Of a DNA stretch of 47,802 nt, positions 3,211 to 47,802 are shown piece after piece. Numbering within the stretch: position 1 is the stretch's first letter; each line of letters begins with the position of its first letter. A program made the translations under genes and the position numbers. Source of the stretch: a virus (lineage: Duplodnaviria; Heunggongvirae; Uroviricota; Caudoviricetes); IMG/VR virus record IMGVR_UViG_2541047899_000009, one strand, 5' to 3'. The notes beneath the pieces were generated by a model. It saw nothing but the letters and a program-made list of their open reading frames with translations. It did not search any database and was not told the DNA's origin.

Positions 3211-3437
3211 AAAATAATCTCGGTGTGAGATGCCTTACGTCTTCCAAGCCCCCTTCCTTGCCGTAAATGGAAAGATACATCTAATTATAGAATTTATATG
3301 TTTTACCCTACGGCAGTGCTAGCCATTCAATATCCTGTGCAGTTGACGTATCAACACGGTTCAGCAACACCCGATACTTCTTCAAGGCTTCCCGCAACGA
3401 GGTTTCTTCCTCCGTTGCATATACAGCTCACCTTTTT

Positions 3438-3731: not shown

Positions 3732-3741
3732 TACGCCTCCT

Positions 3742-4446: not shown

Positions 4447-4455
4447 TTCTCTACC

Positions 4456-4737: not shown

Positions 4738-7148
4738 TAGATTGACTCCCCCATCTGAGCATCAGTCAATGCCTTGTGCCAAATACGCAGATTTCGAACG
4801 TGTCCAAATAGGTGACGGTTGCCGGATGATGATTGACCACCAATATTAATGAAGCCTCCTGTATATTTGTGTTTTTTATAAGGAGAAACTACCTTAGCAC
4901 CAATATTACCGTTAACCACAACACACAATTCTCGACTTTCTGTGAATCTAAAGCCGATAATGCTTTTTCTCTCTGGTCGTTCTATAACGCTTTTATATTC
5001 TATTTTAGTGCCTTTACCATTTGTAATGATTGCGCGTGCTCCCAAAGATGTATACCCCAAATACATATAACTTTCATCTGCAATTTCAGTTGTATCTCCC
5101 GTAGTGGAAATATTAAGAATACGTGCGCTACCTTCTTTGTTTGGCGATTCATCCCAATTGGTATTAACTTCTGCTAATGAACTAATAGCGGGATTGCACC
5201 AATTTAGAGAAATGGGGACCGTTACAATATCGCTGGCGCGTGTTACAGGGGATGCGCCTGTTATAATAAACGATGAAGCGCACGCCCCACCTTCAACTTG
5301 AGGGGTCGCAATATAAATATAATCATCCGCGCCAGTGCCCACTCCTTTTGCCGGGGCATACTGAACCATTCCACCTATCATATTTTCTGTATCAAGTGCC
5401 TTAATTGTCGCCTCAAAAAAGATCCATTTGCTTGCTTCATCTTTAACAGCCCTTGCAGTAATGCGATTAGCGGCACCACCCGTCTTATCAATAGATAAAT
5501 CTGTCGTATTTAAGTAAGCGTCACCTAAGAATGTGTAGGTAGAACCATCATAGTTTTCAAATCGTAATCGGCATCTTAAATTTGGAGTGCCACTTTGCAC
5601 CCTGCATGATATGGTTACATACTTTTCTCCGCCTGTTACATCAAAACCTTTACTGCCGGAAACGGTTACTATGTTAATCGCTGAAATTTGCCCTACCATT
5701 TCTGGTTTTAATGTAAATTTTGCGTACTGGAATCCGAAATCATCTACACCTGATGCACTTAAGATCATATTTGACGACTTGTTCCATTTAGTCGGATTTG
5801 TTGAATTGATTAGCAGGTTAGTTCTTTGCCCCTCAATAAGCAGGCCATCACGTTCAAATCGTGGCTCGTCAATGGCAGCCTCTGTCAGCACACCAGATTT
5901 ATTAATGTAAGTTGCTTTCGATGCGCGTTTAAACTTTACAATCTTGTAGCCAGGCATTGTTATTTCATCGTCGCCAATAACAATTTTTTTATATGATGGC
6001 GAAAAGCCCGTAATCATATCCAGTGAATCATTAAACGGTATCCACACATCGGGCAACGGCTGCAAAACTTGTTTATACGGCTCCGCTGCCTGGCTTGCAT
6101 ACTCTCTGGCTGCGTCTTCACTTGCTTTAGCTGCTGTCTGGCTTGCTGCCGATGCTTGCGCCGAGTTCGCCGCCGCAGTCTCGCTCGCCTTTGCGTTGGT
6201 TTCACTGGTTTTTGCTGCTTTTTGACTGTTAGCTGATGCAGTGGCAGAAGCAGCCGCCGCGCTTGCAGAACTGGCTGCGGCACTCTCGCTTTGGGCCGCT
6301 GCATCCTGACTGCTTTTCGCCGCAGTTTCACTGGCTTTGGCATTCGTTTCGCTGGTCTTCGCTGCCGTCTGGCTGGACTTTGCGTTAGTTTCACTCGTCT
6401 TCGCAGCTTTCTGGCTGTTAGCCGCAGCAGTTGCTGATCCAGCTGCTGAAGTCGCAGAACCGGCTGCCGCGCTCTCGCTTTGGGCTGCTGCAACCTGGCT
6501 GTTTTTTGCCGCAGTTTCACTGGCTTTGGCATTCGTTTCGCTGGTTTTCGCTGCCGTCTGGCTGGACTTTGCGTTGGTTTCGCTCGTCTTTGCGGCTGTC
6601 TCGCTATTTTTCGCGTTGGTTTCTGATTTTTTGGCTGCTGTCGCGGAGTTTGCCGATGCAGTCTTTGAGGTCGCTGCCGCCTGTGCACTATTAGCTGCAT
6701 TCGTTTCTGAGGTTTTCGCCGCGTTCTTTGATGATGCCGCTGCAGTTTCGGATTTCTTTGCCGCCGCTGCGCTCTGAGAGGCGGCTTCGGCGTTGCGTGC
6801 CACTTCTTCCACCATTGCCTCAAAACGACGCAATGCCTCCGGCATGACATCATCTTCCGTCATGGCACCGAGAAAATCATTCAGCGTACCTGGTCTGGAG
6901 CCTTCATAGACGGTAATGGTCCCGGCATGTGAAGGCGGAAAACCTTCAACCAGCAGGGTGACGCTGTACTGGCCATACTCAACATCCATGCTGTAACGTC
7001 CGGCTTCATCCGGATTTTCAGAAGCCACCGTGTTCACCAGTACCGTGGTGCTGTTACGCTTTGCCTTCAGTTGAATAGTGCAGTTCTGTATTGGTTTTCC
7101 CGCACCATCTTTCAGCACACCTGAGATTTTTACTGCTGCCATATCCAC
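4737..7148 (-). CDS. stf: side tail fibre protein (lambda Stf-like N-terminus, Ala/Ser/Thr-rich repeat shaft, lectin/jelly-roll-like C-terminal domain)
   Basis: 803 aa; N-terminus (AVKISGVLKDGAGKPIQNCTIQLKAKRNSTTVLVNTV...YSMDVEYGQYSVTLLVEGFPPSHAGTITVYE) closely matches recalled lambda Stf; long (AAKTSETNAK)n-type repeats follow. Confidence 0.9.
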   Translation of the reverse strand: MDMAAVKISGVLKDGAGKPIQNCTIQLKAKRNSTTVLVNTVASENPDEAGRYSMDVEYGQYSVTLLVEGFPPSHAGTITVYEGSRPGTLNDFLGAMTEDDVMPEALRRFEAMVEEVARNAEAASQSAAAAKKSETAAASSKNAAKTSETNAANSAQAAATSKTASANSATAAKKSETNAKNSETAAKTSETNAKSSQTAAKTSETNAKASETAAKNSQVAAAQSESAAAGSATSAAGSATAAANSQKAAKTSETNAKSSQTAAKTSETNAKASETAAKSSQDAAAQSESAAASSASAAAASATASANSQKAAKTSETNAKASETAAANSAQASAASQTAAKASEDAAREYASQAAEPYKQVLQPLPDVWIPFNDSLDMITGFSPSYKKIVIGDDEITMPGYKIVKFKRASKATYINKSGVLTEAAIDEPRFERDGLLIEGQRTNLLINSTNPTKWNKSSNMILSASGVDDFGFQYAKFTLKPEMVGQISAINIVTVSGSKGFDVTGGEKYVTISCRVQSGTPNLRCRLRFENYDGSTYTFLGDAYLNTTDLSIDKTGGAANRITARAVKDEASKWIFFEATIKALDTENMIGGMVQYAPAKGVGTGADDYIYIATPQVEGGACASSFIITGASPVTRASDIVTVPISLNWCNPAISSLAEVNTNWDESPNKEGSARILNISTTGDTTEIADESYMYLGYTSLGARAIITNGKGTKIEYKSVIERPERKSIIGFRFTESRELCVVVNGNIGAKVVSPYKKHKYTGGFINIGGQSSSGNRHLFGHVRNLRIWHKALTDAQMGESI
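6120..6720. repeat. tandem direct repeats (about 189-bp unit, 2 full copies plus partial copies) inside stf
   Basis: Near-identical stretches beginning around 6322 and 6511 (gcagtttcactggctttggcattcgtttcgctggt...); they encode the repeated AAKTSETNAKSSQTAAKTSETNAKASETAAK blocks. Confidence 0.8.
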
Positions 7149-26969: not shown

Positions 26970-27254
26970 TTTGTCGCTCCATGCGTTTGCTCGTCATCTA
27001 GCGGTTAAAATATTACTTCAAATCTTACTGCATAAAAGAGGAAAAGTATGAAAGTTTGAGTACATCGACCTTACATACATCTGTCGGTTGCATATCCCTC
27101 CTGGATGCCAGCAAGGCTCAATTTTGTTACGCAATCAACACTATTCATCAAAAACAGGCTTAATATTTGACATAAATCATCAACAAAACACAAAGAGGTC
27201 AGACCAGATTAAAACAATAAACACGATAATGCTAACTACGCGCCATCGTATCAC

Positions 27255-27680
27255 ATGGAAGGTTTACCAATGGCTCAGGCTGCCATTTTTAAAGAAATAT
27301 TCGATCAAGTGCGTAAAGATTTAAACTGTAAATTATTTTATTCTGAGCTAAAACGTCACAATGTCTCACTTTATATTTACTATTTAGCCACAGATAATAT
27401 TCACATTGTGTTAGAAAACGACAACATAGTGTTAGTAAAAGGACTCAAAAAGGTTGTAAATGTTAAATTCTCCAGAAACAAACATCTTATAGAGACCTCC
27501 TATAATAAGCTGAAATCAAAAGAAATCACATTTCAACAATACAGGGAAAATCTTGCTAAAGCAGGAGTTTTCCGATGGGTTACAAATATCCAGGAACACC
27601 AAAGATATTACTATGCCTTTGATAACTCATTACTATTTACTGAAAGCATCCAGAAAACTACACAGATCTTACCACGCTAA
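27255..27680 (+). CDS. ydfO: YdfO-like (DUF1398) prophage protein
   Basis: 141-aa ORF starting at an ATG; recalled as YdfO-like and sits near gnsB/cspI as in Qin. Confidence 0.6.
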
Positions 27681-27831
27681 ACCATAACGTCCGGCTTCTC
27701 TCACTCCTGAGCCGGACTGCATTGGTTTAATAAAAACCATCAACAATTGTGATTTAGATATTCGGAACCATTCAAATATAACAAAACCCCGTAAAAACGA
27801 GGTTTATGGATAAATTTTATTATTGAATACA

Positions 27832-28005
27832 TCAGATTAAATTAATCTTGACATCATAGCTTTCAAGACCCGTCATTTTTTCCCGTGCGGTAAACTGAAT
27901 ACTGGTAACTTCTTTCCCGGTCTTTTTCTTAAGTTCAATAATTTTTTTTGTTATATATTCAGAAATATCTGCTTCTGCTTTTGTTTTTAAGTTTTCAATA
28001 TTCAT
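27832..28005 (-). CDS. gnsB: GnsB-like small protein (Gns family)
   Basis: 57-aa ORF absent from the track (below cutoff): MNIENLKTKAEADISEYITKKIIELKKKTGKEVTSIQFTAREKMTGLESYDVKINLI; AAGAGGA RBS upstream. Confidence 0.65.
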   Translation of the reverse strand: MNIENLKTKAEADISEYITKKIIELKKKTGKEVTSIQFTAREKMTGLESYDVKINLI

Positions 28006-28176
28006 CATTTCCTCTTTTAGTCTGTTATGACTTTCCAGTTACACAGTAAGTCGATTATATGGTGCAAACGTGTAAAAGATAAGATGAAACATCGCAATAA
28101 TCAACATACGATAGTCTAAATTTTACACAAACAGACAAAGAGAATTTTCCTGAATTATCAATACAATAGCATCAAA

Positions 28177-28407
28177 TCAACTCAAGAGCCTTATTGCTGC
28201 TTCCAGAATTTCTTCTGAAGTAACATGTCGATCCGCGGCTACATAAATGACTTTATGATCTCCGGTCAGAGATGGAAACCCTGCGGCCATTACAGTAAGG
28301 TGTGTTTTTTCGCCATTTGGATATTCACGCATGATGGTGTTAACTCCAGTCATCGCTGGCACTACCACTGCTGGTTCAGAGTTAAAAAAAACTATGATTT
28401 TTTTCAT
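28177..28407 (-). CDS. hypothetical small protein
   Basis: About 76 aa from the internal Met (MKKIIVFFNSEPAVVV...); no motif recognised. Confidence 0.4.
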   Translation of the reverse strand: MKKIIVFFNSEPAVVVPAMTGVNTIMREYPNGEKTHLTVMAAGFPSLTGDHKVIYVAADRHVTSEEILEAAIRLLS

Positions 28408-28678
28408 GATGTTACCGTAGTATGTGAGTATCCATCGAATAGATACCAAGCAAAAAAGCTCCCGAAGGAGCCTTCATTTTCACTTTTTTAAATCCAACGA
28501 CAGACGGCTGGCATTTAAGTATTGTGAAATATTATCAAATGTAATCATCATTGATTTACAAAAGATACATTTTGCCCCGAAAGGATTCATGTCAGAAACA
28601 TCAAAAGATGATGTTCTATACTGGGAACCATGACAACACGGGCATCTAAAGTGAATATGGTTTGTAATATTGTCTACC

Positions 28679-28891
28679 TCAAAGCGCCACTACATGAACA
28701 GCGGCAGGACCTTTAGGTCCGTTCTCAATACCAAATTCAACTTCCTGATTCTCAGTTAATGTTTTGAAATCGTTGCTCTGAATTGCTGAGAAATGGACAA
28801 ACACATCTTTGCTGCCATCTTTCGGCGTGATGAAACCAAAACCTTTTTCAGGGTTAAACCATTTCACTAAACCAGTCATTTTGTTAGACAT
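28679..28891 (-). CDS. cspI: cold-shock protein (CspA family)
   Basis: 70 aa; RNP1/RNP2 motifs (KGFGFI, VFVHF); C-terminus ...PAAVHVVAL matches recalled CspI. Confidence 0.85.
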
Positions 28892-29253
28892 AATTATTAC
28901 CTTTTGAAGAAATTAGCCCTTGGGCAGAATGGTCCGAAAAAAAATATCAGAGAGAAAAACCAACAAGGAAATCTCAAGAGGTACAAATAATAAAATTATA
29001 ACAATGACTGCTTCAGATAAATTTGTAACAAACCAGAACACCATTAACGCATGATTAACCACCCATAGCAAGGATTACTTTTGTAAAGAAAAACACAGCA
29101 ATGAAAGAATAGCTTTATTTATTAATAAAACGTGTCATTCTGATTAAGACCTTTTATCTTACCCTTAAGATTTCAGGAATTTTGGCTCATGGAAGAGTCC
29201 TTTTTATTTAAATTTTACATTCCGCGATGTAAATGTTCCGATTTAATATTACC

Positions 29254-30277
<1,024 letters not shown>

Positions 30278-30281
<4 letters not shown>

Positions 30282-30565
30282 ATATATTTATGATGAGGAC
30301 GCTCGTGCTTATTGGCAGGATTTTCAATCTTAAAGGAGTACTGATGCTGCAGATAAGACTCAACTTTTTCTGACAATTTTTCTGCTACTTCCAGGAAGAC
30401 TTGCCGGACGCTCCTTCTGGCTGCTGCCTCATAAAACTCCAGCGCAGCTCCTTCAACACGGTCCATGGCGACATCCAGGTCAAAAATTTCACCGTCAAAG
30501 CGTTCTTTGTCCTGTAAGGCTACAGTTACCGTAACTTTATTCTCAAAATTACGGACTCCTTTCAC
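30278..30565 (-). CDS. ydfR: YdfR-like (DUF1327) protein
   Basis: 95-aa ORF between holin and endolysin, as recalled for Qin ydfR. Confidence 0.55.
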
Positions 30566-30593
30566 AACCAGTTCATAGTCTTGAGTCGTTGGA

Positions 30594-30809
30594 TTACTCT
30601 CCTCTCGCAGCCTTACGCCTGTCTTCTTTAATCTTGAAATAAAGATTTGTCAGATACGTCAGCAGGCCAAAAACCAGGCTACCCAGCACACCGATTGCAG
30701 CCCACTGTGACGGAGTTACTTTATCGAGTAACTGCAATGCCCAGAAACCAGCATTACCCGCCGATGTGCCATAGGCAACACCTGTTGTTAACTTATCCAT
30801 TGATTTCAT
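30594..30809 (-). CDS. essQ: class II holin / pinholin with dual start (S21-like)
   Basis: [71 protein letters not shown]; two TM domains and the M-K-S-M dual-start motif of phage 21 S. Confidence 0.85.
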
Positions 30810-31028
30810 ATCCTCACCCCGATGTACACGGATGGTGCAATATGTTTGAAAAGATCGGAGTCTACGGGGTAGTTTTGACAGCACACGCTGTTCTCAACGG
30901 CGCTAAAGAAACATACACATTAAAAATGTGAGTAATTATTTTGAAAGAAAGTCATATATAAAATAATAATACGAGAAATGTTTTCATATTTAGTGTACTG
31001 TATACGGCCATTTATACAGGAAAAGCCT

Positions 31029-31199
31029 ATGTCAGAACGTAAAGACTCAAAATCACGCCGTAATTATCTCGTTAAATGTTCCTGCCCAAACTGCACCCAA
31101 GAGTCAGAACACAGTTTTTCAAGAGTACAAAAAGGTGCCCTTTTGATCTGCCCTCATTGCAACAAAGTATTCCAGACAAATCTTAAAGCTGTAGCCTGA
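31029..31199 (+). CDS. small zinc-ribbon protein (hypothetical)
   Basis: About 56 aa from the internal Met (MSERKDSKS...); paired cysteines CSCPNC...CPHC. Confidence 0.4.
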   Translation: MSERKDSKSRRNYLVKCSCPNCTQESEHSFSRVQKGALLICPHCNKVFQTNLKAVA

Positions 31200-31252
31200 T
31201 TGATTTTATTAGTAACAAGTATTTTTTATATTTTAATAATATATTTAAAGCA

Positions 31253-31283
31253 GATAATAAAAAACCCGCCTGAGCGGGTTTGA
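31253..31283 (-). terminator. rho-independent terminator of cspB
   Basis: Hairpin aaacccgc-ctga-gcgggttt followed on the minus strand by ttttttatt. Confidence 0.6.
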
Positions 31284-31562
31284 GATTGTGGTGCTTTTTG
31301 TGGGAGTCATCCACTTACGCACTTTGTTTTGCCATGCCAGCAGTTAGCTTCTGCTGTAAAACTATTCATGCAGCAAACCTGCACTTCACCACAATGGTTA
31401 GCATACTTTTCCTGATTAAGATTTTGCCAAATATGCTGGCCATTGTTTCATGTATTGGACCTCCTTAAATTTTATTAAAGAAATCCAATATTCACTACTC
31501 TGTCCGTATCTCTACTCAGGCATCAGCCTTCTTCGTTATCGTATACAGACGAGCGATGAATT

Positions 31563-31778
31563 TTAATCAGTAATGATGACATTTGCTGCTGCAGGACCTT
31601 TAGCACCACTCTCTATAGAGAAGGTAACCTTTTGACCTTCAAATAAGGTTCGATAATTATCATTCTGAATCGCAGAAAAATGCACAAACACATCTTTACT
31701 ACCATCAACAGGAGAAATAAAGCCGAAACCTTTATCAGCGTTAAACCATTTTACTAAACCAGTCATTTTATTTGACAT
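31563..31778 (-). CDS. cspB: cold-shock protein (CspA family)
   Basis: 71 aa: [67 protein letters not shown]...; recalled CspB. Confidence 0.85.
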
Positions 31779-32078
31779 TCTACATTCCTTAACTTGAGCC
31801 TTTCGGCATAAATGGTTTGCATAACAGAAACGACTTCGTACTTAATTGGAGAGACTCAAAGAAGGAATAAGTGAATAACACCTGAAATGAGAACTGCTTT
31901 AGTAAACTACTTCGTATATCGTCTGTTCTTCAAACCGACGCAATCATTAACGCATAGTTGAACATATGAAGCAATGTTTATTTTAGACATCCAGCCATCT
32001 TCAACCCCATCAAAAAACTATAGCTTTCTTCAGGAACGTGTGTATAGTGCGCCAAGTTATCAGTATTAAGGAATTTTT

Positions 32079-35699: not shown

Positions 35700-38498
35700 T
35701 CAGGCACCGTGACATTTTTTGTACTTTATTCCCGAGCCACAGGGGCATTGTTCATTCCGGCCGACCGCACCAAAAACTTCAGTTAATTTAGTCTTTGCTG
35801 CTTTATGGGCAAGCTGTACGATGTAATTTGATTGATTTTGGATTTCTTGACGCTGTACACCTGTGAGGCCTTCGATATAGGGAGCAAGGCGCTGCATTTC
35901 GACATCAGCTGCTTTATGCTGACCCGATAGTGCCAATATGACTGCGTACTGGCTTCGAACCTGAATCAGTCGATGTACTAGACCTGCCTCATTGACAACC
36001 GGCAGGACATGTTGCTCCATGACTTCCTTGGCACCGTCGTAATCCTTTATGGCAACAAACTCATCCGCCAGATCTTGGCCCACCCTGACCATGGATTCCG
36101 GGGCCATGGCCAGATTGTAGAACTTCATCGAATGAATACGCAGTAATGGTGACAGTTTTCCCTGCGCATCACGAATTCTGGCCAGCAACTCCAGAGCATC
36201 AGCCATATGTTTAAAGTGTTCCTGCATATTTTCGGAATGATTAATAGTTTTCCATAATGCGTCGGCGTTTTTTCCTATGACATCAGCAGGTGTGATACCA
36301 AATAAAGAATAGTACCCTTGTATAACATTACAGCTTAATGTTTCAGCATCCTTGAGTTTTTTTAATCTCCAGAGTGCAATGGCATGGTTGTAGTCAAAGA
36401 TGCGTTTATGTTCTTCATCTGGGAGTTGGGGGCGGACTTCCTGTGCCAGCTTTTGAACTTCTCGTGCATCATTGCTTTCTGCCGAAAATAACATTCGTTT
36501 CATTGCATAGGCCATCTCTTCTTGATAGCCGAACTTGTGCTCCGCAAGTAAAGCTCCCATGATGTTTAACCTCTGAGCAATGTGGTCGGATATTCCGTCT
36601 TTAAGCTCAACGAAAACAAGGCCATCCAATGCCCAGAATTTATGAACAGGTCCCAATAAGTCCGATGTTGCAGCACGCTCCAAGCTTGCAAGAATGTCGA
36701 CCGTCACGCCCATCTCATAAAACATTTCTTGGCCTGAGAGTTCGATCAACGTCGTGACATCATTAAGCTTAATATAAAGTTGAGTCAACAACGATAACCG
36801 TTTTGTATTGCGGGTATTATGAAGACTTTCAACTAAAAGGTCTTTCAGCGCTAGTAGCGCTTTGTTCGATATACCCTGATCCATCAGTTCCAGATGTTGC
36901 AGTCCTAGCCCCCTGACAGCATCATGTACCTTCAGGGTCTGGTTTCCATAAATTTCAATAGTGCCAGTAGCGCGCATTTTCCTAATTAAAGAAGCCGCAC
37001 TGCTTGGTGAAATGTTCAGCGAATTGATTAGGAGCGTAGAAATCTCTTCGCGACTCAGCCCTACGTCAGAGAGACTGAACAATGCCAGCGCGCTCTGAAG
37101 TAGTGATTCAAATCCCTGAAATACACGTGACAGAATAATTTCTTGGGCGGTTTCCGCAGTATGGGTTTGTTGCTGGAGTTCAGCACACAGAGCATCGACA
37201 CTACGCTCATAGTCAGAAACGGCGATTTTTGCGGCGCTCTCTACATACAGGGGAAGACCACCAGTGTAAGCCCGTAGCTGCTCGTATCCCATAGCGGTGG
37301 CAAATCCTCCGATATCGTTTACAACGACAGCTACCGTATCGAGATTCCATCCCTGCAGGCCCTCGCGCTGTAGCCCCGTCATGACCTCCAGTTCGCGAAC
37401 GTTTTCGTGAGGCTGGCACAACAGCACAAAACGAATATGTGTAGTTGCATTCAGAACATCCCGTAGATTTTCCGCAGGTACACGATGGGCGTTATCCAGA
37501 ACCAGCACCAAGGTGGTACCCTGCTCTTTCAGGTAGGTATCAAAACTCCTAAGAGCCTCAAAACCACTGGCTCCGGGGAGCAAAATCCTGCGCAAACCGT
37601 CTTGGTCACGGGCTGTAAATCTAGCAGCCATCTCCCGCACCAGCGTACTGGCCAGAGCTGGACCGGGAAGATCACCGGTGTCGTAATAAGCACAAAGTGC
37701 AGTGGAGTGTAATGCGGCCTGTGCGGCCCACGCTGTCTTGCCTGCACCTGAGAGTCCACAAAGGATACGGATCCGCTCACCAGATGTGAGAGAAGGTTCT
37801 TCGTTTTGTGGGCGGTACAGTGCTGGTGGTGCAGGAAAGTCCTGTAGCTGAACGATCAACTGTTCAAATAGTTCAGTAAGTTCCTCCGTGAAAAACGTAT
37901 GTTGTCCATTGGTATCGCCTCCGGTGGCGGCAAGCTGAACCAACCCTGCTAACTTCCAAATCAAGGATTCTGGGGACAATAGTGAAAATTTCAGCTTTTC
38001 TGCTTCTGCGATACACCATGTGGCCGCATCAGCCAGAGTACTCCATGCGGGCGGAAGTGCCGGGTGACGTCCAGCTGTCGACCGGGGCCAGACAATAAGA
38101 ACATCAGAAGGAAGCTTTTTATCGTCAATCATCTTCTGAAGCAGCGGTCCAGGCGCCTGGTTTACAATAATCACAAAAGAAGCCACCCCTTCGCGGTTTG
38201 CCGAAGTATGCTCATTTCTGAGCTTTACAAATCGCTCCAGAGCCCCCGACACATCGTTGGGCATAATAGGCTTTGAACGGGTTTTAACCTGAATGTAGAG
38301 ACGTTCCTGTTTGGATTTCAGCTCAATATCCTCATCAAGCTCGACAGTTACTGAGTCCATAGCAGCCCTCTGCGCCAAAAGTAAGCAGCCTACAGCGTAA
38401 AGATGCTGGTAAAGGAACCCCCGGTGTACCGCTTCGATACGCACCAACTGCACAGGATCCAGTACGTCCAGATGTTGTTTGTTTTCACTTCCCCACAT
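35700..38498 (-). CDS. STAND-like P-loop NTPase with N-terminal nuclease-like domain, helical repeat region and C-terminal SEC-C zinc motif; candidate Avs/NLR-like antiphage defence protein
   Basis: 932 aa. Walker A GLSGAGKT (about aa 248-255), Walker B LVLVLD (about aa 330-335), possible PD-(D/E)xK-like residues in the N-terminal 80 aa (VELDEDIELK...YIQVK), about 550 aa of predicted helical repeats, terminal CPCGSGIKYKKCHG. Single large gene flanked by AT-rich spacers immediately upstream of hokD. Confidence 0.6.
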   Translation of the reverse strand: MWGSENKQHLDVLDPVQLVRIEAVHRGFLYQHLYAVGCLLLAQRAAMDSVTVELDEDIELKSKQERLYIQVKTRSKPIMPNDVSGALERFVKLRNEHTSANREGVASFVIIVNQAPGPLLQKMIDDKKLPSDVLIVWPRSTAGRHPALPPAWSTLADAATWCIAEAEKLKFSLLSPESLIWKLAGLVQLAATGGDTNGQHTFFTEELTELFEQLIVQLQDFPAPPALYRPQNEEPSLTSGERIRILCGLSGAGKTAWAAQAALHSTALCAYYDTGDLPGPALASTLVREMAARFTARDQDGLRRILLPGASGFEALRSFDTYLKEQGTTLVLVLDNAHRVPAENLRDVLNATTHIRFVLLCQPHENVRELEVMTGLQREGLQGWNLDTVAVVVNDIGGFATAMGYEQLRAYTGGLPLYVESAAKIAVSDYERSVDALCAELQQQTHTAETAQEIILSRVFQGFESLLQSALALFSLSDVGLSREEISTLLINSLNISPSSAASLIRKMRATGTIEIYGNQTLKVHDAVRGLGLQHLELMDQGISNKALLALKDLLVESLHNTRNTKRLSLLTQLYIKLNDVTTLIELSGQEMFYEMGVTVDILASLERAATSDLLGPVHKFWALDGLVFVELKDGISDHIAQRLNIMGALLAEHKFGYQEEMAYAMKRMLFSAESNDAREVQKLAQEVRPQLPDEEHKRIFDYNHAIALWRLKKLKDAETLSCNVIQGYYSLFGITPADVIGKNADALWKTINHSENMQEHFKHMADALELLARIRDAQGKLSPLLRIHSMKFYNLAMAPESMVRVGQDLADEFVAIKDYDGAKEVMEQHVLPVVNEAGLVHRLIQVRSQYAVILALSGQHKAADVEMQRLAPYIEGLTGVQRQEIQNQSNYIVQLAHKAAKTKLTEVFGAVGRNEQCPCGSGIKYKKCHGA

Positions 38499-40980: not shown

Positions 40981-41071
40981 GAGTCGCTCCATAAAACTGA
41001 ACGCCAAAAGTTTAATAATCAAAACCAAAGAAAGTCAAGAAACAAAACCATCTGTGTTTTAAAATCAAAAC
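40981..41071. promoter_or_regulatory. divergent immunity promoter/operator region (OR analogue)
   Basis: 91-bp AT-rich intergenic region between divergent Cro-like and CI-like genes with partial palindromes (aaaactgaacgccaaaagttt, aaaaccatctgtgtttt). Confidence 0.5.
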
Positions 41072-41710
41072 ATGAACAAGCAAACAATATCTGAACGCAT
41101 AACCCAACGTATGCATGCGCTAAACTTGAAAGGCAAAGACCTTGTCAATGCCACTGGCGCATCAAAAGGCTCCGTAAGTCAATGGATGAACGGTGGAGGA
41201 GCGCCGTCCTCGCGTTACATAAGTTCACTGGCAAAGATATTGAAAGTAAACGAAAATTGGCTTCTTAATGGAGGAGAGTTAAATACAGGTGATTCGCTTG
41301 ATCTATCTTTACCGCCGATAAAAACGGTTCCGCTACTATCACTTCAGCAGGCAGCAAGCTGGAGTGATTATATGAAAAATTCCTCAATAACCTCTTGTGT
41401 GCAGCTTGTCGGAGAAATCCCGGCCAATACCTTTGCTGTTGTTCTAGAGAGTGACAGTATGTCGACATCTGGTGGTGGAGTTTCCATCCCAAATGGTTCA
41501 ACAGTTTTTGTTGATCCCGATCGAATCGTACAACCAGGAAATATTGTCCTTGCCTTACCCAAAGGGACCACAACGCCTGTCATTCGCAAACTGGAGATAG
41601 AAGGGCCGGATATTCTTTTAGTCCCCACGAATCCTCGCTACCCTTCAATTATGCTGGATGATCTATCTTGCATATTGGGAGTATGCTTTAAAATTCAACA
41701 AGATATTTAA
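41072..41710 (+). CDS. CI-like prophage repressor (HTH-XRE N-terminal domain + S24 LexA-like autopeptidase domain)
   Basis: 212 aa; HTH (GKDLVNATGASKGSVSQWMNG), S24 domain with Ser in VVLESDSMS and Lys in VIRKLEIEG. Confidence 0.85.
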   Translation: MNKQTISERITQRMHALNLKGKDLVNATGASKGSVSQWMNGGGAPSSRYISSLAKILKVNENWLLNGGELNTGDSLDLSLPPIKTVPLLSLQQAASWSDYMKNSSITSCVQLVGEIPANTFAVVLESDSMSTSGGGVSIPNGSTVFVDPDRIVQPGNIVLALPKGTTTPVIRKLEIEGPDILLVPTNPRYPSIMLDDLSCILGVCFKIQQDI

Positions 41711-42002
41711 CCAACCTCATCTATTTGATTAACTGTATGCCATCGTAGTGATGGCGTAACAGCTGCCTGCTTAAAATGTTTTGATAAAAAAACATTGACC
41801 TTAAATGTTCATTTTTCTAAACTTCATTCATTCCCTCACCCCGCCCCACAGAATGCAGGGCAATACTTCGAGTTACCAGGCAGTGGTCAGGGGTTAAGTA
41901 GCCAGCCCGAGGCGTAAGAACATGACGGCAGGGTTCAACTTTAATAACTATGCAGCAGGTTTTTGTTCCGCTACCCCGGCGTTAAGGGGAAATGAGGTCA
42001 GC

Positions 42003-42158
42003 ATGGATACTATCGATCTTGGCAACAGCGAATCTCTGGTATGTGGCGTGTTCCCCAACCAGGACGGCACGTTCACCGCGATGACGTATACCAAAAGCAA
42101 AACGTTTAAAACCGAAAATGGTGCCCGTCGCTGGCTGGAAAGAAACTCAGGTGAGTGA
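42003..42158 (+). CDS. ydfA: YdfA-like small protein
   Basis: 51 aa from the internal Met (MDTIDLGNSESLVCGVFPNQDGTFTAMTYTK...); first gene of the dicB-type operon. Confidence 0.6.
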   Translation: MDTIDLGNSESLVCGVFPNQDGTFTAMTYTKSKTFKTENGARRWLERNSGE

Positions 42159-42159
42159 T

Positions 42160-42735
42160 ATGGATTTCGACACAATCATGGAAAAGGCTTACGAAGAATA
42201 CTTCGAAGGCCTTGCCGAAGGCGAAGAAGCTCTCAGCTTCAGTGAGTTTAAACAGGCACTCAGAATAAGAATGTGCTCTCACAATGACGCGGAGCACAAA
42301 TATGAGAAGCAAAATCAGACCGCAGAAAATTTTGTTCTGGAACCCGGAGAAACGCTTTTCAAAATTCCCGTTACGTGCCCCATTTGCGGTTTTACATCAG
42401 AAGAACTTGACGACTCCTGTAACAATCAGGAAACAACCAAGTATGTCGAAGATGATACTGAGTGCGCACGAAGAACGATTATATCCACGAGTCCAAACTC
42501 CAGGATCAATAAATCTCACTTTGAGAGGGTGATTAATCCACTCCCCCAAACCAATAAAAAAGATGCCGGAGGACAAAAAACCCAATGGAACAACGGGATA
42601 TCTGTCAAAAAAAGACGTTCCATTAAAGACAAACAACGCAGCGCCAACAACTGTAAGCGCTTTATACCAGTAATCAATTTTCATGTTCTTAAGCGGATTT
42701 ATTGGTGGTTGCGACATTGCTTAATGAATCCTTAA
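42160..42735 (+). CDS. hypothetical protein (YdfB/YdfC region), zinc-ribbon-like
   Basis: About 191 aa from MDFDTIMEKAYEEYFEGL; CPICGF...C motif; basic C-terminus. Confidence 0.5.
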   Translation: MDFDTIMEKAYEEYFEGLAEGEEALSFSEFKQALRIRMCSHNDAEHKYEKQNQTAENFVLEPGETLFKIPVTCPICGFTSEELDDSCNNQETTKYVEDDTECARRTIISTSPNSRINKSHFERVINPLPQTNKKDAGGQKTQWNNGISVKKRRSIKDKQRSANNCKRFIPVINFHVLKRIYWWLRHCLMNP

Positions 42736-42994
42736 AACTGTGGTGATTTTAAGGATACCACCTCGCCTGACGTGGTTAAAAGCAGGCACACAACACGAAA
42801 GCGCACGGCGAAGTTCGTCTCACTGTACGGTGTCGTTAAATTTAATTCGACCGTGCGCTTCCGGTTGTGGCAACCCGCAAAATGGCGCGGCGGTAAGTAT
42901 GGCGGGGTTATTCCTTCCCCGTTGAGGACACCGAGTTGTCAGGTTGACCATACGCTTAAGTGACAACCCCGCTGCAACGCCCTCTGTTATCAAT

Positions 42995-43052
42995 TTTCTG
43001 GTGACGTTTGGCGGTATCAGTTTTACTCCGTGACTGCTCTGCCGCCGTTTTT
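42995..43052 (+). ncRNA. dicF: DicF small regulatory RNA (ftsZ-targeting)
   Basis: tttctggtgacgtttggcggtatcagttttactccgtgactgctctgccgccgttttt matches the recalled DicF sequence, including the 3' stem-loop and U-tract; located upstream of dicB. Confidence 0.85.
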
Positions 43053-43221
43053 AAAGTGAATTTTGTGATGCGGTGAATGCGGCTAAGCGCACGCGGAACA
43101 GTTAAAACCAAAAACAGTGTTATGGGTGGATTCTCTGTATCCGACGTTAATTGTTAACTGGTTAACGTCACCTGGAGGCACCAGGCACTGCATCACAAAA
43201 TTCATTGTTGAGGACGCGATA

Positions 43222-43410
43222 ATGAAAACGTTATTACCAAACGTTAATACGTCTGAAGGTTGTTTTGAAATTGGTGTCACTATCAGTAACCCTGTATTTA
43301 CTGAAGATGCCATTAACAAGAGAAAACAAGAACGGGAGCTATTAAATAAAATATGCATTGTTTCAATGCTGGCTCGTTTACGTCTGATGCCAAAAGGATG
43401 TGCACAATGA
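43222..43410 (+). CDS. dicB: cell division inhibitor DicB
   Basis: 62 aa: MKTLLPNVNTSEGCFEIGVTISNPVFTEDAINKRKQERELLNKICIVSMLARLRLMPKGCAQ (internal start of ORF 43117..43410). Confidence 0.9.
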   Translation: MKTLLPNVNTSEGCFEIGVTISNPVFTEDAINKRKQERELLNKICIVSMLARLRLMPKGCAQ

Positions 43411-43598
43411 ATTCAGCATTTGCGCTTGTTCTGACAGTTTTTCTTGTTTCCGGAGAGCCAGTTGATATTGCAGTCAGTGTTCACAGGACAATGCAGGAGT
43501 GTATGACTGCAGCAACCGAACAGAAAATTCCCGGTAACTGTTACCCGGTCGATAAAGTTATTCACCAGGATAATATCGAAATCCCGGCAGGTCTTTAA
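43407..43598 (+). CDS. ydfD: YdfD small membrane/lysis protein
   Basis: 63 aa from MNSAFALVLTVFLVSGEPVD...; start overlaps the dicB stop. Confidence 0.75.
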   Translation: MNSAFALVLTVFLVSGEPVDIAVSVHRTMQECMTAATEQKIPGNCYPVDKVIHQDNIEIPAGL

Positions 43599-43691
43599 AA
43601 CAGTTCCGTAATAAATATCCGGTTTCATTCTTATATGCCAGCAATGGCAGGGATTTGTTCATCCTTAAATCTGTCATGAGGTTAAAACAAA

Positions 43692-46163
43692 ATGAGTAAA
43701 GTCTTTATTTGCGCCGCTATTCCTGACGAACTGGCAACAAGGGAAGAAGGCGCTGTGGCTGTAGCCACAGCCATTGAAGCTGGCGACGAACGCCGTGCTC
43801 GAGCAAAATTTCACTGGCAGTTCCTGGAACATTATCCGGCTGCTCAGGACTGCGCTTATAAATTTATTGTCTGCGAGGATAAACCTGGCATACCCCGCCC
43901 TGCCCTCGATTCATGGGATGCTGAATATATGCAGGAAAACCGCTGGGATGAGGAGTCTGCTTCTTTTGTCCCGGTTGAGACTGAATCCGATCCGATGAAC
44001 GTCACTTTTGACAAGCTGGCCCCTGAAGTACAGAACGCTGTCATGGTTAAGTTCGACACATGTGAAAACATCACCGTTGATATGGTTATTAGCGCACAGG
44101 AATTGTTGCAGGAAGACATGGCAACATTCGACGGACATATCGTTGAAGCGTTGATGAAAATGCCAGAAGTTAACGCCATGTATCCGGAGCTTAAGTTGCA
44201 CGCCATTGGGTGGGTTAAGCATAAATGTATTCCTGGTGCTAAATGGCCCGAAATTCAGGCAGAGATGCGCATCTGGAAAAAACGTCGCGAAGGTGAACGC
44301 AAGGAAACCGGAAAATACACGTCTGTTGTTGATCTCGCCCGCGCCAGAGCCAATCAACAGTACACTGAAAATTCAACAGGAAAAATCAGCCCGGTCATTG
44401 CTGCCATTCATCGCGAATACAAGCAGACATGGAAAACACTGGATGACGAACTGGCCTACGCTCTCTGGCCTGGTGATGTGGATGCCGGAAACATTGACGG
44501 CAGCATCCATCGCTGGGCAAAAAAAGAAGTTATCGACAACGACCGCGAAGACTGGAAGCGTATCTCGGCATCAATGCGCAAACAGCCTGATGCCCTTCGC
44601 TACGACCGCCAGACTATTTTTGGCCTTGTCCGTGAGCGTCCGATCGACATTCACAAAGATCCCATAGCACTGAACAAATATATCTGCGAATACCTGACGA
44701 CAAAGGGCGTGTTTGAGAATGAAGAAACAGACCTGGGCACTGTTGATGTTCTCCAGTCATCAGAAACACAAACTGATGCAGTGGAAACTGAGGTATCTGA
44801 TATCCCAAAAAATGAAACCGCGCCGGAAGCTGAACCATCTGTAGAGCGTGAGGGGCCGTTCTATTTCCTCTTCGCAGATAAGGACGGAGAAAAATACGGT
44901 CGCGCAAACAAACTTTCTGGTCTGGATAAGGCACTGGCTGCTGGCGCCACTGAAATCACAAAAGAAGAATATTTTGCCCGAAAAAATGGCACATACACGG
45001 GCTTACCGCAAAATGTAGATACCGCTGAAGATTCAGAACAACCAGAGCCGATAAAAGTTACCGCTGACGAAGTAAACAAAATTATGCAGGCAGCCAATAT
45101 CAGCCAGCCTGACGCCGATAAGTTGCTTGCTGCATCACGTGGTGAATTTGTTGAAGGGATTAGTGACCCGAATGATCCGAAATGGGTTAAGGGGATCCAG
45201 ACCCGCGATTCTGTGAACCAGAACCAGCATGAATCGGAACGGAACTACCAAAAAGCGGAACAAAACAGCACAAATGCGTTACAAAACGAGCCAGAAACGA
45301 AACAGCCTGAACCAGTGGCGCAACAGGAAGTGGAAAAAGTCTGCACCGCCTGCGGTCAGACCGGCGGCGGCAACTGCCCTGATTGTGGCGCGGTGATGGG
45401 CGACGCAACATACCAAGAAACATTCGATGAAGAGTATCAGGTTGAAGTTCAGGAAGATGATCCGGAGGAAATGGAAGGCGCTGAACATCCACACAAGGAG
45501 AACACTGGCGGCAATCAGCATCACAATAGCGATAATGAAACTGGCGAGACGGCAGATCACTCAATTAAGGTGAACGGTCATCACGAAATCACATCCACCA
45601 GCAGGACGTGTGACCATCTAATGATCGACCTTGAAACCATGGGAAAAAATCCTGATGCCCCGATCATCTCAATAGGTGCAATATTTTTCGATCCGCAAAC
45701 CGGAGATATGGGACCGGAATTTAGTAAGACTATCGATCTGGAAACTGCTGGCGGAGTCATTGATCGGGACACCATTAAATGGTGGCTTAAGCAATCACGC
45801 GAAGCGCAATCTGCCATTATGACCGATGAAATCCCGTTAGATGATGCACTGTTACAATTACGGGAATTTATCGACGAAAACTCCGGTGAATTTTTTGTTC
45901 AGGTTTGGGGAAATGGAGCCAACTTCGACAACACGATTTTGCGCCGTTCATACGAACGGCAGGGGATCCCCTGCCCGTGGCGTTACTACAACGATCGCGA
46001 TGTACGCACAATCGTTGAGCTGGGGAAAGCCATAGACTTCGATGCCAGAACGGCTATTCCATTCGAAGGTGAGCGCCATAATGCACTTGATGACGCCCGT
46101 TACCAGGCAAAATACGTTTCAGTTATCTGGCAAAAACTGATCCCGAGTCAGGCTGATTCTTAA
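43692..46163 (+). CDS. large prophage protein with C-terminal DEDDh (DnaQ-like) 3'-5' exonuclease domain and internal zinc ribbon (YdfE-like)
   Basis: 823 aa; C-terminal exonuclease motifs (HLMIDLETMG, GNGANFDNTIL, HNALDDARYQAKY); CTACGQTGGGNCPDCG zinc ribbon; acidic low-complexity linkers. Confidence 0.75.
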   Translation: MSKVFICAAIPDELATREEGAVAVATAIEAGDERRARAKFHWQFLEHYPAAQDCAYKFIVCEDKPGIPRPALDSWDAEYMQENRWDEESASFVPVETESDPMNVTFDKLAPEVQNAVMVKFDTCENITVDMVISAQELLQEDMATFDGHIVEALMKMPEVNAMYPELKLHAIGWVKHKCIPGAKWPEIQAEMRIWKKRREGERKETGKYTSVVDLARARANQQYTENSTGKISPVIAAIHREYKQTWKTLDDELAYALWPGDVDAGNIDGSIHRWAKKEVIDNDREDWKRISASMRKQPDALRYDRQTIFGLVRERPIDIHKDPIALNKYICEYLTTKGVFENEETDLGTVDVLQSSETQTDAVETEVSDIPKNETAPEAEPSVEREGPFYFLFADKDGEKYGRANKLSGLDKALAAGATEITKEEYFARKNGTYTGLPQNVDTAEDSEQPEPIKVTADEVNKIMQAANISQPDADKLLAASRGEFVEGISDPNDPKWVKGIQTRDSVNQNQHESERNYQKAEQNSTNALQNEPETKQPEPVAQQEVEKVCTACGQTGGGNCPDCGAVMGDATYQETFDEEYQVEVQEDDPEEMEGAEHPHKENTGGNQHHNSDNETGETADHSIKVNGHHEITSTSRTCDHLMIDLETMGKNPDAPIISIGAIFFDPQTGDMGPEFSKTIDLETAGGVIDRDTIKWWLKQSREAQSAIMTDEIPLDDALLQLREFIDENSGEFFVQVWGNGANFDNTILRRSYERQGIPCPWRYYNDRDVRTIVELGKAIDFDARTAIPFEGERHNALDDARYQAKYVSVIWQKLIPSQADS

Positions 46164-46235
46164 TGTTCAACTGTCGCCGGTTGTGACTGGTATTCTGCAA
46201 CCGGCGCTCGTCTGATGTAAGAGATAAAGAAATCG

Positions 46236-46487
46236 ATGAGCGAAGTAATCATGATTGTCTCTCCCGGCAAATGGGTATCCGAAGAGCAGTTAATTGCGCT
46301 GAAAGGAATAAAAAAAGGTACGTTAAAAAAGGCCCGGGAAAAATCGTTTATGGAAGGAAGGGAATATAAGCATGTCGCTCATGACGGTATGCCATGGGAT
46401 AACAGTCCATGCTTTTACAACCTGGAAGAAATTGATCGCTGGATTGAGCGCCAGGCATCAGCGAGACCAAGACGTCATCTTACTTGA
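46236..46487 (+). CDS. xis: excisionase-like protein
   Basis: 83-aa ORF immediately upstream of the integrase on the same strand; small basic protein. Confidence 0.6.
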   Translation: MSEVIMIVSPGKWVSEEQLIALKGIKKGTLKKAREKSFMEGREYKHVAHDGMPWDNSPCFYNLEEIDRWIERQASARPRRHLT

Positions 46488-46506
46488 CTAAAAGCCACAC
46501 TAACTA

Positions 46507-47802
46507 ATGAGAGAAGTTGAAATGAAATATCCGACAGGCGTGGAAAACCATGGAGGGAAATTACGTATCTGGTTTGTTTATAAAGGCGTAAGAGTCAGGG
46601 AAAATCTGGGGGTTCCTGACACAGCAAAAAACAGGCGCGTTGCAGGTGAACTACGCTCCTCTGTTTGTTACGCAATAAAAACTGGTGTTTTCGACTATGC
46701 AAAACAGTTTCCCTCCTCACGCAATCTGGAAAAATTTGGTGAGGCCCGACAAGATTTAACCATAAAAGAACTGGCTGAAAAATTTCTGGCACTGAAAGAA
46801 ACTGAAGTCGCCAAAACATCACTCAACACATACCGTGCCGTCATCAAAAATATCCTGAGCATAATCGGTGAAAAAAATCTTGCCTCATCGATTAATAAAG
46901 AAAAATTACTGGAGGTTCGTAAAGAGCTACTGACTGGATACCAGATCCCCAAAAGTAACTATATTGTTACACAACCAGGGAGATCGGCTGTAACTGTAAA
47001 TAATTACATGACAAATCTTAACGCCGTGTTCCAGTTTGGTGTTGATAACGGTTACCTGCCAGATAATCCGTTTAAGGGGATCTCGCCATTAAAGGAATCA
47101 AGAACCATTCCGGATCCTCTTTCGCGGGAGGAATTTATCCGTCTTATCGATGCGTGCAGAAATCAGCAAGCAAAAAATTTATGGTGTGTTTCTGTTTATA
47201 CTGGCGTTCGCCCTGGTGAGCTGTGTGCACTTGGATGGGAGGACATAGATCTGAAAAATGGAACAATGATGATCAGGAGAAATTTAGCAAAAGACCGTTT
47301 CACGGTACCAAAAACACAGGCGGGAACCAATCGGGTCATTCATCTTATTAAGCCAGCAATCGACGCTCTCCGGAGTCAGATGACATTAACGAGACTGAGC
47401 AAAGAGCATATCATTGATGTTCACCTCAGAGAGTATGGCAGAACAGAAAAACAAAAATGCACCTTTGTTTTTCAACCTGAAGTGTCAGCGAGAGTAAAAA
47501 ATTATGGTGACCATTTTACCGTTGACTCAATAAGGCAGATGTGGGACGCAGCGATAAAACGTGCCGGACTCCGCCATCGAAAATCATATCAGTCGAGACA
47601 TACTTATGCCTGCTGGTCGCTGACAGCTGGTGCTAACCCGGCATTTATAGCAAACCAGATGGGCCATGCAGATGCGCAAATGGTATTTCAGGTATACGGA
47701 AAATGGATGTCTGAAAACAATAATGCACAGGTAGCTTTGTTAAATACACAGTTAAGCGAGTTTGCCCCAACCATGCCCCATAACGAAGCAATGAAAAATT
47801 AA
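46507..47802 (+). CDS. int: tyrosine-type site-specific integrase
   Basis: 431-aa ORF (probable start at MKYPTG, about 46522); conserved catalytic residues in the C-terminal domain (RPGELCAL..., HxxR in SRHTYACWS, Tyr in VYGKW); ends at the window edge. Confidence 0.9.
   Translation: MREVEMKYPTGVENHGGKLRIWFVYKGVRVRENLGVPDTAKNRRVAGELRSSVCYAIKTGVFDYAKQFPSSRNLEKFGEARQDLTIKELAEKFLALKETEVAKTSLNTYRAVIKNILSIIGEKNLASSINKEKLLEVRKELLTGYQIPKSNYIVTQPGRSAVTVNNYMTNLNAVFQFGVDNGYLPDNPFKGISPLKESRTIPDPLSREEFIRLIDACRNQQAKNLWCVSVYTGVRPGELCALGWEDIDLKNGTMMIRRNLAKDRFTVPKTQAGTNRVIHLIKPAIDALRSQMTLTRLSKEHIIDVHLREYGRTEKQKCTFVFQPEVSARVKNYGDHFTVDSIRQMWDAAIKRAGLRHRKSYQSRHTYACWSLTAGANPAFIANQMGHADAQMVFQVYGKWMSENNNAQVALLNTQLSEFAPTMPHNEAMKN

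Follow-up and report, generated by a model that had tools for sequence, protein, structure and literature searches.

Intact ydfE of a Qin-like prophage encodes a RecE-type N-terminal scaffold joined to a predicted DEDDh exonuclease domain

Results

The IMG/VR virus record IMGVR_UViG_2541047899_000009 (Caudoviricetes) is a stretch of 47,802 nucleotides (nt), analysed here as a whole and called the window. At 43692-46163 it carries an open reading frame (ORF) of 823 amino acids plus stop, with an ATG start and a TAA end; this gene and all of its parts described below lie on the + strand. The ORF list, RefSeq, a match to K-12 ydfE and PHROG 2082 identify it as a complete ydfE-type coding sequence (CDS). 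Positions 41000-47802 of the window are 100% identical to a stretch of the Escherichia coli O7:H15 ST70 chromosome, on which the RefSeq CDS WP_001583545.1, named "exonuclease", has coordinates coinciding with the ORF, and PHROG 2082 "exonuclease" covers the full length of the protein. The first-pass annotation, made from the DNA letters before the present analysis, had delimited the ORF exactly, and the peptide that it quoted, EVQEDDPEEMEGAEHPHKEN, is present in the protein.

The window holds the intact counterpart of the pseudogene ydfE (b1577) of E. coli K-12, because the K-12 remnant is identical at 256/256 positions to the N-terminus of the window protein (residues 1-256), up to the insertion point of IS2E. 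In K-12 MG1655, the cryptic prophage Qin has ydfD followed by the pseudogene ydfE interrupted by IS2E; the two copies share the neighbours dicB-ydfD and the chromosomal site rspB. Isolated phages, HannyBb and 813R8, carry the gene as well. Pfam names PF27430 YdfE_N and PF27432 YdfE_C; the Pfam copy applied to the window protein is older than both models, which were seen through the precomputed matches of P0010 (an 823-residue cluster representative, 92-93% identical) and all close relatives. YdfE is thus catalogued (RefSeq, PHROG 2082, Pfam YdfE_N/C), extremely common and uncharacterised.

The C-terminal part of YdfE (residues 641-823, 45612-46160) is a predicted DEDDh 3'-5' exonuclease domain of the Rv2179c/DexA type, with an RNase H-like DnaQ fold and an intact catalytic pentad, as indicated by Pfam, a sequence match in the PDB, Foldseek and the catalytic alignment columns. 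Pfam PF16473 (Rv2179c-like) matches residues 642-813 with an E value of 2.3e-67 (226.5 bits against a cutoff of 27) over profile positions 2-177 of 177; besides it, the scan of the 823-residue protein with the local Pfam copy returned only a weak RNase_T match in the same stretch and nothing elsewhere. D646, E648, D746, H796 and D801 do not vary when YdfE is aligned with T4 DexA and five members of the family, and they match D7, E9, D119, H186 and D191 of DexA (residue numbers from PMC12153337). T4 DexA (8KEL) is also the only solved structure in the PDB that was detectable by sequence (E 1.6e-6). An AlphaFold2 (AF2) model built on a 53-sequence family alignment has block-mean predicted local distance difference test (pLDDT) values of ~66-92 over residues 640-820. 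Foldseek against the PDB placed DexA first for this domain (E 5.6e-8; template modelling score 0.63-0.69 on the target), followed by RNase T, the DnaQ domain and Orn/REXO2, with a probability of 1.00 for all top matches. The C-terminal DEDDh (DnaQ-like) exonuclease proposed at first pass is therefore borne out by PF16473 and the five invariant catalytic residues.

The preceding 640 residues are not an orphan region, judging from sequence comparison. BLASTP aligned YdfE 262-625 with residues 278-591 of K-12 RecE at 39% identity over 364 columns (E 9e-62), pointing to homology between this stretch and the non-catalytic N-terminal part of RecE. Residues 474-625 are ~80% identical to RecE by inspection, with sub-segments at 84-89% in module BLAST, and the aligned stretch takes in the RGEFV(E/D)GISDPNDPKWVKGIQTRD motif, the zinc ribbon and the acidic tract. 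The NCBIfam equivalog model of RecE, PRK09709, matches YdfE 246-625 at model positions 271-602, with 282.9 bits against a cutoff of 1269. At RecE residue 591 the alignment ends, about where the RecE nuclease begins (residues 564-866 according to the review PMC11611040) and ~20 residues ahead of either nuclease domain. The Pfam scan found no match in YdfE to PF12684 (DUF3799 PD-(D/E)XK, the 5'-3' nuclease) or to PF06630 (the Exonuc_VIII head), the latter present in 18/53 sequences of the family alignment.

The same N-terminal arm occurs with other C-terminal domains. A database search with residues 1-640 found the YdfE arm joined to a DUF3799 domain in P0001-P0009 and P0113. Sister proteins of 880-900 residues are 97-98% identical to YdfE over residues 1-~600 and have at their C-terminus a DUF3799 PD-(D/E)XK domain nearly identical to RecE's own, and a 1058-residue relative has the same arm with a longer PD-(D/E)XK domain. 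The tether sequence is common to YdfE, RecE and P0008 up to ...ETGE(T/V)AD (~residue 622) and diverges beyond. Because the same arm, at 97-98% identity, is joined to the PD-(D/E)XK nuclease of RecE and to other payloads, YdfE is a RecE-family scaffold with an exchanged catalytic payload.

When 1.84 billion cluster representatives were searched exhaustively, the arm proved to have just 247 relatives, of which many are fragments. Mapping modules onto the long ones showed that the head is either YdfE_N or Exonuc_VIII of the RecE type (PF06630), that nearly all family members contain a core helical domain, and that a GPFYF domain, a conserved motif and the zinc ribbon are optional parts. These are followed by at least five C-terminal payloads: DEDDh, RecE-type PD-(D/E)XK, long PD-(D/E)XK, a module termed modX and a short "LCANPA" module. 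In the family alignment (n=53, query and close relatives included), 18 sequences have the Exonuc_VIII head, 11 the DUF3799 domain and 10 the Rv2179c-like domain. Head and payload also combine across types. P0128 is a natural chimera of the K-12 RecE head (100% identical) and the DEDDh domain of the window (99%); phage 813R8 has a RecE-type head with a DEDDh payload, then xis-int, at another attachment site; and head-by-payload combinations recur in divergent lineages (P0122, P0141 and P0245), where the DEDDh domain is 53-76% identical.

The modX payload gave only sub-threshold matches to Rad52, which share one signature segment (Pfam E 0.0027; TIGR00607 E 0.13), and a PDB sequence search, a profile search and hhalign against the Rad52-type single-strand annealing protein (SSAP) of phage epsilon34 were all non-significant, so its candidacy as a Rad52-like annealase module is suggestive only. 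A YdfE_N arm with modX is found in Pectobacterium phage ZF40 gp07-gp06 (L006 2687-5364), where a Sipho_Gp157-family gene follows the fusion, and also in four further loci, L012-L015 (Pantoea, Erwinia, Enterobacter). If confirmed, the modX fusion would be an arm-annealase fusion. Separately, the 703-residue P0203 has RecE residues 1-~527 and then, from an in-frame junction inside the zinc ribbon, the C-terminal portion of RecT; it is either a natural recE-recT deletion fusion or an assembly artefact.

YdfE is not a member of the RecE family proper, since the three defining features tested are absent; it is a RecE-type scaffold with a payload of predicted reversed polarity rather than RecE (exodeoxyribonuclease VIII) itself. 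The database label "exodeoxyribonuclease VIII" is wrong for YdfE because of the PRK09709 score (283 against 1269), the different nuclease, the different head and the missing recT, and the label "exoribonuclease" is predicted only.

The arm consists of several discrete parts. The YdfE_N head (residues 1-218, 43692-44345; AF2 pLDDT ~90-97) combines an alpha/beta subdomain (1-100) and a helical subdomain (105-218). The core helical domain (residues 245-340, 44424-44711; pLDDT 93-97) aligns to RecE 278-350 and carries the motifs LDxEIAxALWPGDVD, DREDWKR and ALRYDRQTIFGLV. A small beta-hairpin/helix domain (residues 388-432, 44853-44987; GPFYF...GRANK...EITKEEY; pLDDT 92-96) is present in many relatives, not all. 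Farther along, a short conserved motif, DKLLAASRGEFVEGISDPNDPKW, lies in a disordered segment (residues 474-498, 45111-45185; pLDDT ~50, one short helix). The 4-Cys zinc ribbon, CTACGQTGGGNCPDC (residues 551-565, 45342-45386), is recognised by its cysteine positions, C551-x2-C554-x7-C562-x2-C565, and by a weak NCBIfam zinc-ribbon match (E 0.014); it is conserved in RecE and is an optional module, missing from several DEDDh-carrying relatives. An acidic tether, predicted to be disordered from its charge and a pLDDT of ~30 (residues 567-636, 45390-45599), contains the payload junction (~residue 622) and leads to the nuclease. Its acidic tract has a net charge of -13 in 30 residues (569-600), and residues 1-640 as a whole have a net charge of -52.

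These results refine what had been claimed for the N-terminal region. The zinc ribbon (C551, C554, C562 and C565) and the acidic stretches (-13 per 30 residues at 569-600) are both there. The description as ~600 residues with low-complexity stretches holds for parts only: residues 219-237, 345-383, 439-456 and 496-636 are low-complexity or disordered, and ~400 residues of the N-terminal 640 are predicted to be well folded. The region is indeed uncharacterised; it is not without relatives, being covered by PF27430/PF27432 and partly common to RecE, and its identity as ydfE had been missed. Structure prediction, proposed at first pass, was carried out on residues 1-440 as a second AF2 model (mean pLDDT 85), which shows four folded units separated by disordered acidic linkers. 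Foldseek with this model against PDB and BFVD found no relative at E<=1e-3, only weak matches to ferredoxin-like or small proteins. The arm is thus predicted to have folds lacking a recognisable structural relative, from which no function can be derived.

When codons were compared with those of E. albertii orthologues, of phage 813R8 and of the PD-(D/E)XK sister gene, the arm proved to be under purifying selection, i.e. functional, because the ratio of nonsynonymous to synonymous substitution rates (dN/dS) is low in its folded domains and motif relative to the linkers. The ratio is 0.08-0.27 in the YdfE_N head, 0.12-0.18 in the core helical domain and 0.04-0.08 in the small beta domain (0.04-0.27 over the folded domains), as against 0.5-0.7 in the disordered linkers; it is 0.03-0.12 in the motif (tabulated for residues 474-495) and 0.46-0.77 in the acidic tether. 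A simple homologue of a characterised host exonuclease with a non-conserved N-terminal extension had been named at first pass as the refuting case, and the extension proved to be conserved. Among 44 divergent relatives, the best-conserved segments are the core helical domain, with a coverage of 0.96 and the highest identity of any segment, and the motif. The latter is 55-93% identical within proteins that are otherwise 20-35% identical, and is present in K-12 RecE too. This motif, RGEFVEGISDPNDPKW, looks like a short linear binding peptide in a flexible tether and is a candidate partner-binding peptide.

Within single pairs, the synonymous rate (dS) changes more than 10-fold along ydfE (against L010, L009, L100 and L005). 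In the comparison with the E. albertii locus L010, dS is 0.29-0.55 in residues 1-432 and 0.02-0.05 in residues 496-823. Such shifts indicate intragenic mosaicism, with recent recombination breakpoints inside the coding sequence.

ydfE is the last gene of a repressor-controlled early-left dicF-dicB-ydfD operon, directly before xis-int. The window is a Qin-like lambdoid prophage between ydfJ and rspB with a full structural gene set. Upstream of ydfE, on the same strand, lie a LexA-family (CI-type) repressor gene, ydfA, a truncated ydfB, the small RNA (sRNA) DicF (42996-43047, + strand; Rfam RF00039, 72.5 bits), dicB (43222-43410, +) and ydfD (43407-43598, +). Downstream, the excisionase gene xis (46236-46487, +) begins 73 nt past the ydfE stop codon and is followed by the tyrosine integrase gene int (46522-47802, +); dicB, ydfD, xis and int are placed by RefSeq annotation, which has neither recT nor lar between ydfE and xis-int. 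The early-left position assigned at first pass agrees with this order. In K-12, the dicB promoter is reported to drive dicB, ydfD and ydfE and to be under DicA repression (PMC11430063, quoting RegulonDB). A search for a promoter or terminator of ydfE itself gave counts of promoter-like and terminator-like sites within shuffle expectation and no promoter-like site directly upstream. Because the K-12 promoter is reported to be DicA-repressed and no own promoter-like site exceeds chance, ydfE is an induction-time (early-left) gene that is not obviously expressed in the lysogen.

Related loci differ in what accompanies the nuclease. At the Rac attachment site, the PD-(D/E)XK sister gene (L005) is followed by RecT and Lar, the classical RecET order, and has dicB-ydfD upstream, as in the window. 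In loci with the downstream module of the window type (e.g. L007, L017 and L018), xis begins at +76 nt. Salmonella phage epsilon34 encodes in its PL operon gp34, a stand-alone DEDDh protein 56% identical to the YdfE domain, in the order kil, gp36, gp35 (single-stranded DNA-binding protein), gp34 (DEDDh) and Abc2 (anti-RecBCD), where gp36 belongs to the Rad52_Rad22 family (Pfam E 4.7e-25). In phages LLS and VPHZ6, the stand-alone homologue is the last or nearly the last early gene before xis-int.

The gene family is abundant. DNA of the DEDDh payload occurs in 4069/5426 complete E. coli genomes (75%), at 8098 places and in up to 7 copies per genome; DNA of the YdfE_N head occurs in 3966 of the same genomes (6860 places) and that of the K-12 RecE nuclease domain in 1736 (1827 places). 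The DEDDh payload is thus found in more than twice as many E. coli genomes as the RecE nuclease domain. Beyond E. coli, a species-representative scan (10 species-level loci) found the family in Escherichia, Shigella, Pantoea, Erwinia, Enterobacter, Citrobacter and one metagenome-assembled proteobacterial genome. Truncated forms occur, e.g. L011 with 385 residues.

Several further features of the window were recorded. Between the ydfE stop and xis lies a G+C-rich hairpin of 9-10 bp (46175-46206, +) with no T-run; its folding is not significant (z -1.9, with 9/200 shuffles folding equally well). The region 41372-43598 (+) holds a complete dicBF-type operon (DicF, dicB and ydfD), yet ydfB is annotated as truncated and ydfC is absent. 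Within it, ~730 nt (42263-42995) are unannotated and hold a 205-residue ORF (42118-42735) with a YdfB-like start followed by Cys-containing sequence. In the replication/early-right region, ~35700-38498 (-) encodes a 932-residue "SEC-C metal-binding domain-containing protein", unusually large for its position, with a YdaT-like protein, DUF977 and a 356-residue hypothetical protein as neighbours. Two blocks of low G+C content (1-6000 and 27000-32000; 0.34-0.45 against ~0.54 in the structural genes) carry cspB, cspF, cspI, ydfK (cold-shock paralogues), gnsB, lysis genes, pinQ and tail-fibre genes, and are typical moron/accessory regions of Qin-like prophages.

Discussion

From the observed architecture, homology and genomic context of YdfE we infer its substrate, its polarity in vivo and its biological role. 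Our best explanation, for which we see about even chances, is that YdfE acts as a 3'-5' DNA-end exonuclease in the recombination slot of the phage. After induction, it would function as a Mg2+-dependent 3'-to-5' exonuclease on DNA 3' ends, with recombination or replication intermediates as likely substrates for trimming; a further possible use is the scavenging of broken DNA, which has been reported for T4 DexA. Docking, whether to DNA ends or to a partner from host or phage, may be provided by the arm and the tether motif, much as the N-terminal region of RecE is presumed to do. Unlike RecE, the enzyme would work without a cognate annealase. Of the two roles suggested at first pass, recombination and counter-defence, the former is better supported, by the RecE homology of residues 262-625, the recT of L005 and the epsilon34 cluster; for the latter, PADLOC gave no match and no anti-restriction homology was found.

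A number of points weigh against this explanation. A literature search found no functional study of YdfE, that is, no activity, substrate or phenotype measured for it or for close relatives. The docking role of the arm is conjectural, because no structure related to the arm was found. The 3' tails on which annealases work would be degraded, not created, by an enzyme of 3'-5' polarity; YdfE is therefore not simply "RecE with another nuclease". The classical exonuclease/annealase pair is missing, since no annealase (SSAP) is annotated in the whole prophage of the window and RecT occurs within 6 kb downstream in 0/55 of the complete DEDDh-type loci for which 1.5 kb or more of downstream sequence is available; these loci are nearly identical E. 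coli prophages and amount to one observation repeated, and as the IMG/VR loci kept are all >=99% identical, the context statistics are not independent. Distant stand-alone homologues in Vibrio, Pseudomonas and Salmonella SAP012 phages have mostly hypothetical neighbours, a mixed and uninformative context. PF16473 takes its name from an exoribonuclease, and the structural neighbours include RNase T and oligoribonuclease, so that YdfE might act on RNA.

The RNA alternative takes this last point further: YdfE would be a 3'-5' exoribonuclease like Rv2179c that trims host or phage RNAs after induction, possibly including targets from its own operon such as DicF. The PF16473 annotation "3'-5' exoribonuclease Rv2179c-like", the RefSeq name "3'-5' exoribonuclease" borne by many copies, the close structural neighbours RNase T and oligoribonuclease, the description of Rv2179c as a divergent RNase T orthologue (PMC8628891) and the presence of a processed sRNA, DicF, in the same operon are all consistent with it. 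Yet T4 DexA, the solved protein nearest to the domain in sequence as well as in structure, is a DNA exonuclease; the scaffold is common to DNA enzymes (RecE nucleases and the Rad52-like module); and among the solved complexes listed, RNase T too is seen acting on DNA. We regard this account as unlikely. A specific link between the DEDDh domain and DicF was considered and rejected, the PD-(D/E)XK sister gene having the same dicB-ydfD context upstream. A similarly low probability attaches to a defence or superinfection-exclusion nuclease, whose DEDDh domain would degrade incoming phage DNA, for instance DNA with modified cytosines, as claimed for EcD ("HREX"). This E. coli homologue of DexA, a stand-alone protein, is reported to confer protection against T4 and to cleave 5-hydroxymethylcytosine (5hmC) DNA (PMC12153337); a 189-residue protein with a match to the EcD forward primer and with A78 is 38% identical to the YdfE domain, the prophage has host-modulating neighbours (dicB, dicF and ydfD), and 75% of complete E. 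coli genomes hold the payload DNA. The details fit YdfE poorly, however. Where EcD has its hallmark Ala at the DexA D90 position, YdfE has Asp (D718); DexA W152 is Tyr (Y766) and D169 aligns with Arg (R786); and the YdfE domain is closer to the enzyme of the epsilon34-type recombination cluster (56%) than to EcD (38%). Moreover, ydfE belongs to an early operon under repressor control and shows no own promoter-like site above chance level, so that silence in the lysogen is expected; PADLOC defence models gave no match, and the HREX claim comes from one study with plasmid over-expression.

Counter-defence would have the exonuclease act in lytic growth by destroying nucleic acids of host immunity, be they oligonucleotide signals (linear or cyclic), retron msDNA or guide RNAs. 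The early-left operon is a usual site of anti-defence genes, the epsilon34 homologue neighbours the anti-RecBCD Abc2, and oligoribonuclease-like enzymes are structural neighbours; but there is no homology to known anti-defence proteins and no co-variation with a defence system, and this purely inferential proposal leaves the large RecE-type scaffold unexplained, which makes it very improbable. Least probable of all is a functionless mosaic, in which the fusion would be an accident of prophage recombination in shared linker DNA, carried along in the absence of selection. Such an origin would suit the >10-fold variation of dS along the gene, the pseudogene in K-12 and truncated forms such as L011 (385 residues). 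It is hard to reconcile with purifying selection on the folded domains and motif, with catalytic residues intact in all copies examined, with 8098 copies in 4069 genomes, mostly full-length, and with the presence of the gene in isolated phages and the recurrence of head-by-payload combinations (P0122, P0141 and P0245).

A wider proposal concerns the whole family. The arm of YdfE and RecE, together with its motif (RGEFVEGISDPNDPKW), could serve temperate phages of enterobacteria as a general delivery scaffold that engages one conserved host or DNA-end partner and presents interchangeable DNA-end-processing payloads; we consider this doubtful, though worth stating. Two of the payloads could be nucleases (PD-(D/E)XK, 5'-3', and DEDDh, 3'-5') and a third an annealase module resembling Rad52, with two or more unknown modules besides. 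If the proposal were true, the DEDDh form, the commonest in E. coli, would represent an annealase-independent end-processing activity of opposite polarity, and the function of the RecE N-terminus in linear-linear recombination would be explained.

Comparison with known systems

Among solved structures, T4 DexA (8KEL/8KEN) is the best relative of the YdfE domain by sequence and fold, with a common catalytic pentad. This phage enzyme degrades DNA in the 3'-5' direction and has been reported to take part in DNA scavenging and in repair associated with homing (PMC12153337). DexA assembles into dimers and tetramers, and RecE into a tetramer. The two differ in that identity is 22-26% and DexA is a stand-alone protein of 227 residues with extra loops, whereas YdfE has a 640-residue arm. 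The 5hmC-recognition residue W152 of DexA aligns with Y766, an aromatic residue and not Trp, and D169 with R786, in a low-identity part of the alignment. EcD/HREX (PMC12153337) resembles YdfE as a DexA-family DEDDh enzyme in E. coli with intact catalytic residues, at ~38% identity to an EcD-like sequence reconstructed from the published forward primer and matching IMG/VR proteins; it differs as a stand-alone protein of ~189 residues with Ala78, in place of D718, at the DexA D90 position. Loss of the DexA D90 equivalent in EcD is reported to prevent a tetramer that cuts unmodified DNA (PMC12153337). Membership of YdfE in this group was rejected, on 38% identity to the reconstructed sequence and retention of the Asp that EcD lacks. 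Six IMG/VR contigs (L103, L108, L118, L119, L121 and L124) encode 189-residue stand-alone DEDDh proteins that start with MIDTET and have the EcD primer sequence and Ala78.

M. tuberculosis Rv2179c, the founder of PF16473, shares with the YdfE domain the Pfam family and the DEDDh fold. It is cellular and stand-alone, unlike YdfE, and is reported as an RNase T-like exoribonuclease (PMC8628891); no PDB sequence match between it and YdfE was found at E<=0.01. Stand-alone Rv2179c-like exonucleases of temperate enterobacterial phages include gp34 of epsilon34, gp34 of Escherichia phage LLS and the homologue of 1720a-02, which are 56-60% identical to YdfE residues 641-823 and share its Pfam family and early-left position; unlike YdfE they have no arm or tether, and none is characterised.

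A further counterpart is RecE of the Rac prophage. Both proteins place an exonuclease at the C-terminus, behind a long N-terminal region without catalytic function, and have in common a homologous middle and tether including the RGEFV(E/D)GISDPNDPKW motif, the zinc ribbon and the acidic tract, and a genomic slot late in the early-left operon near xis-int. They differ in the nuclease (DEDDh, 3'-5', in YdfE; PD-(D/E)XK, 5'-3', in RecE) and in the head (YdfE_N against Exonuc_VIII), and no recT follows ydfE. As an example of mosaicism, ydfE will not surprise a phage genomicist. K-12, the standard laboratory strain, holds only a truncated ydfE pseudogene, despite the abundance of ydfE in E. coli. 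The ~600-residue N-terminal region of RecE is listed as of "unknown function", yet it alters the outcome of recombineering (linear-linear enhancement; PMC11611040). With its natural payload swaps, its peptide motif and its near-universal core helical domain, YdfE offers a testable handle on this region of RecE.

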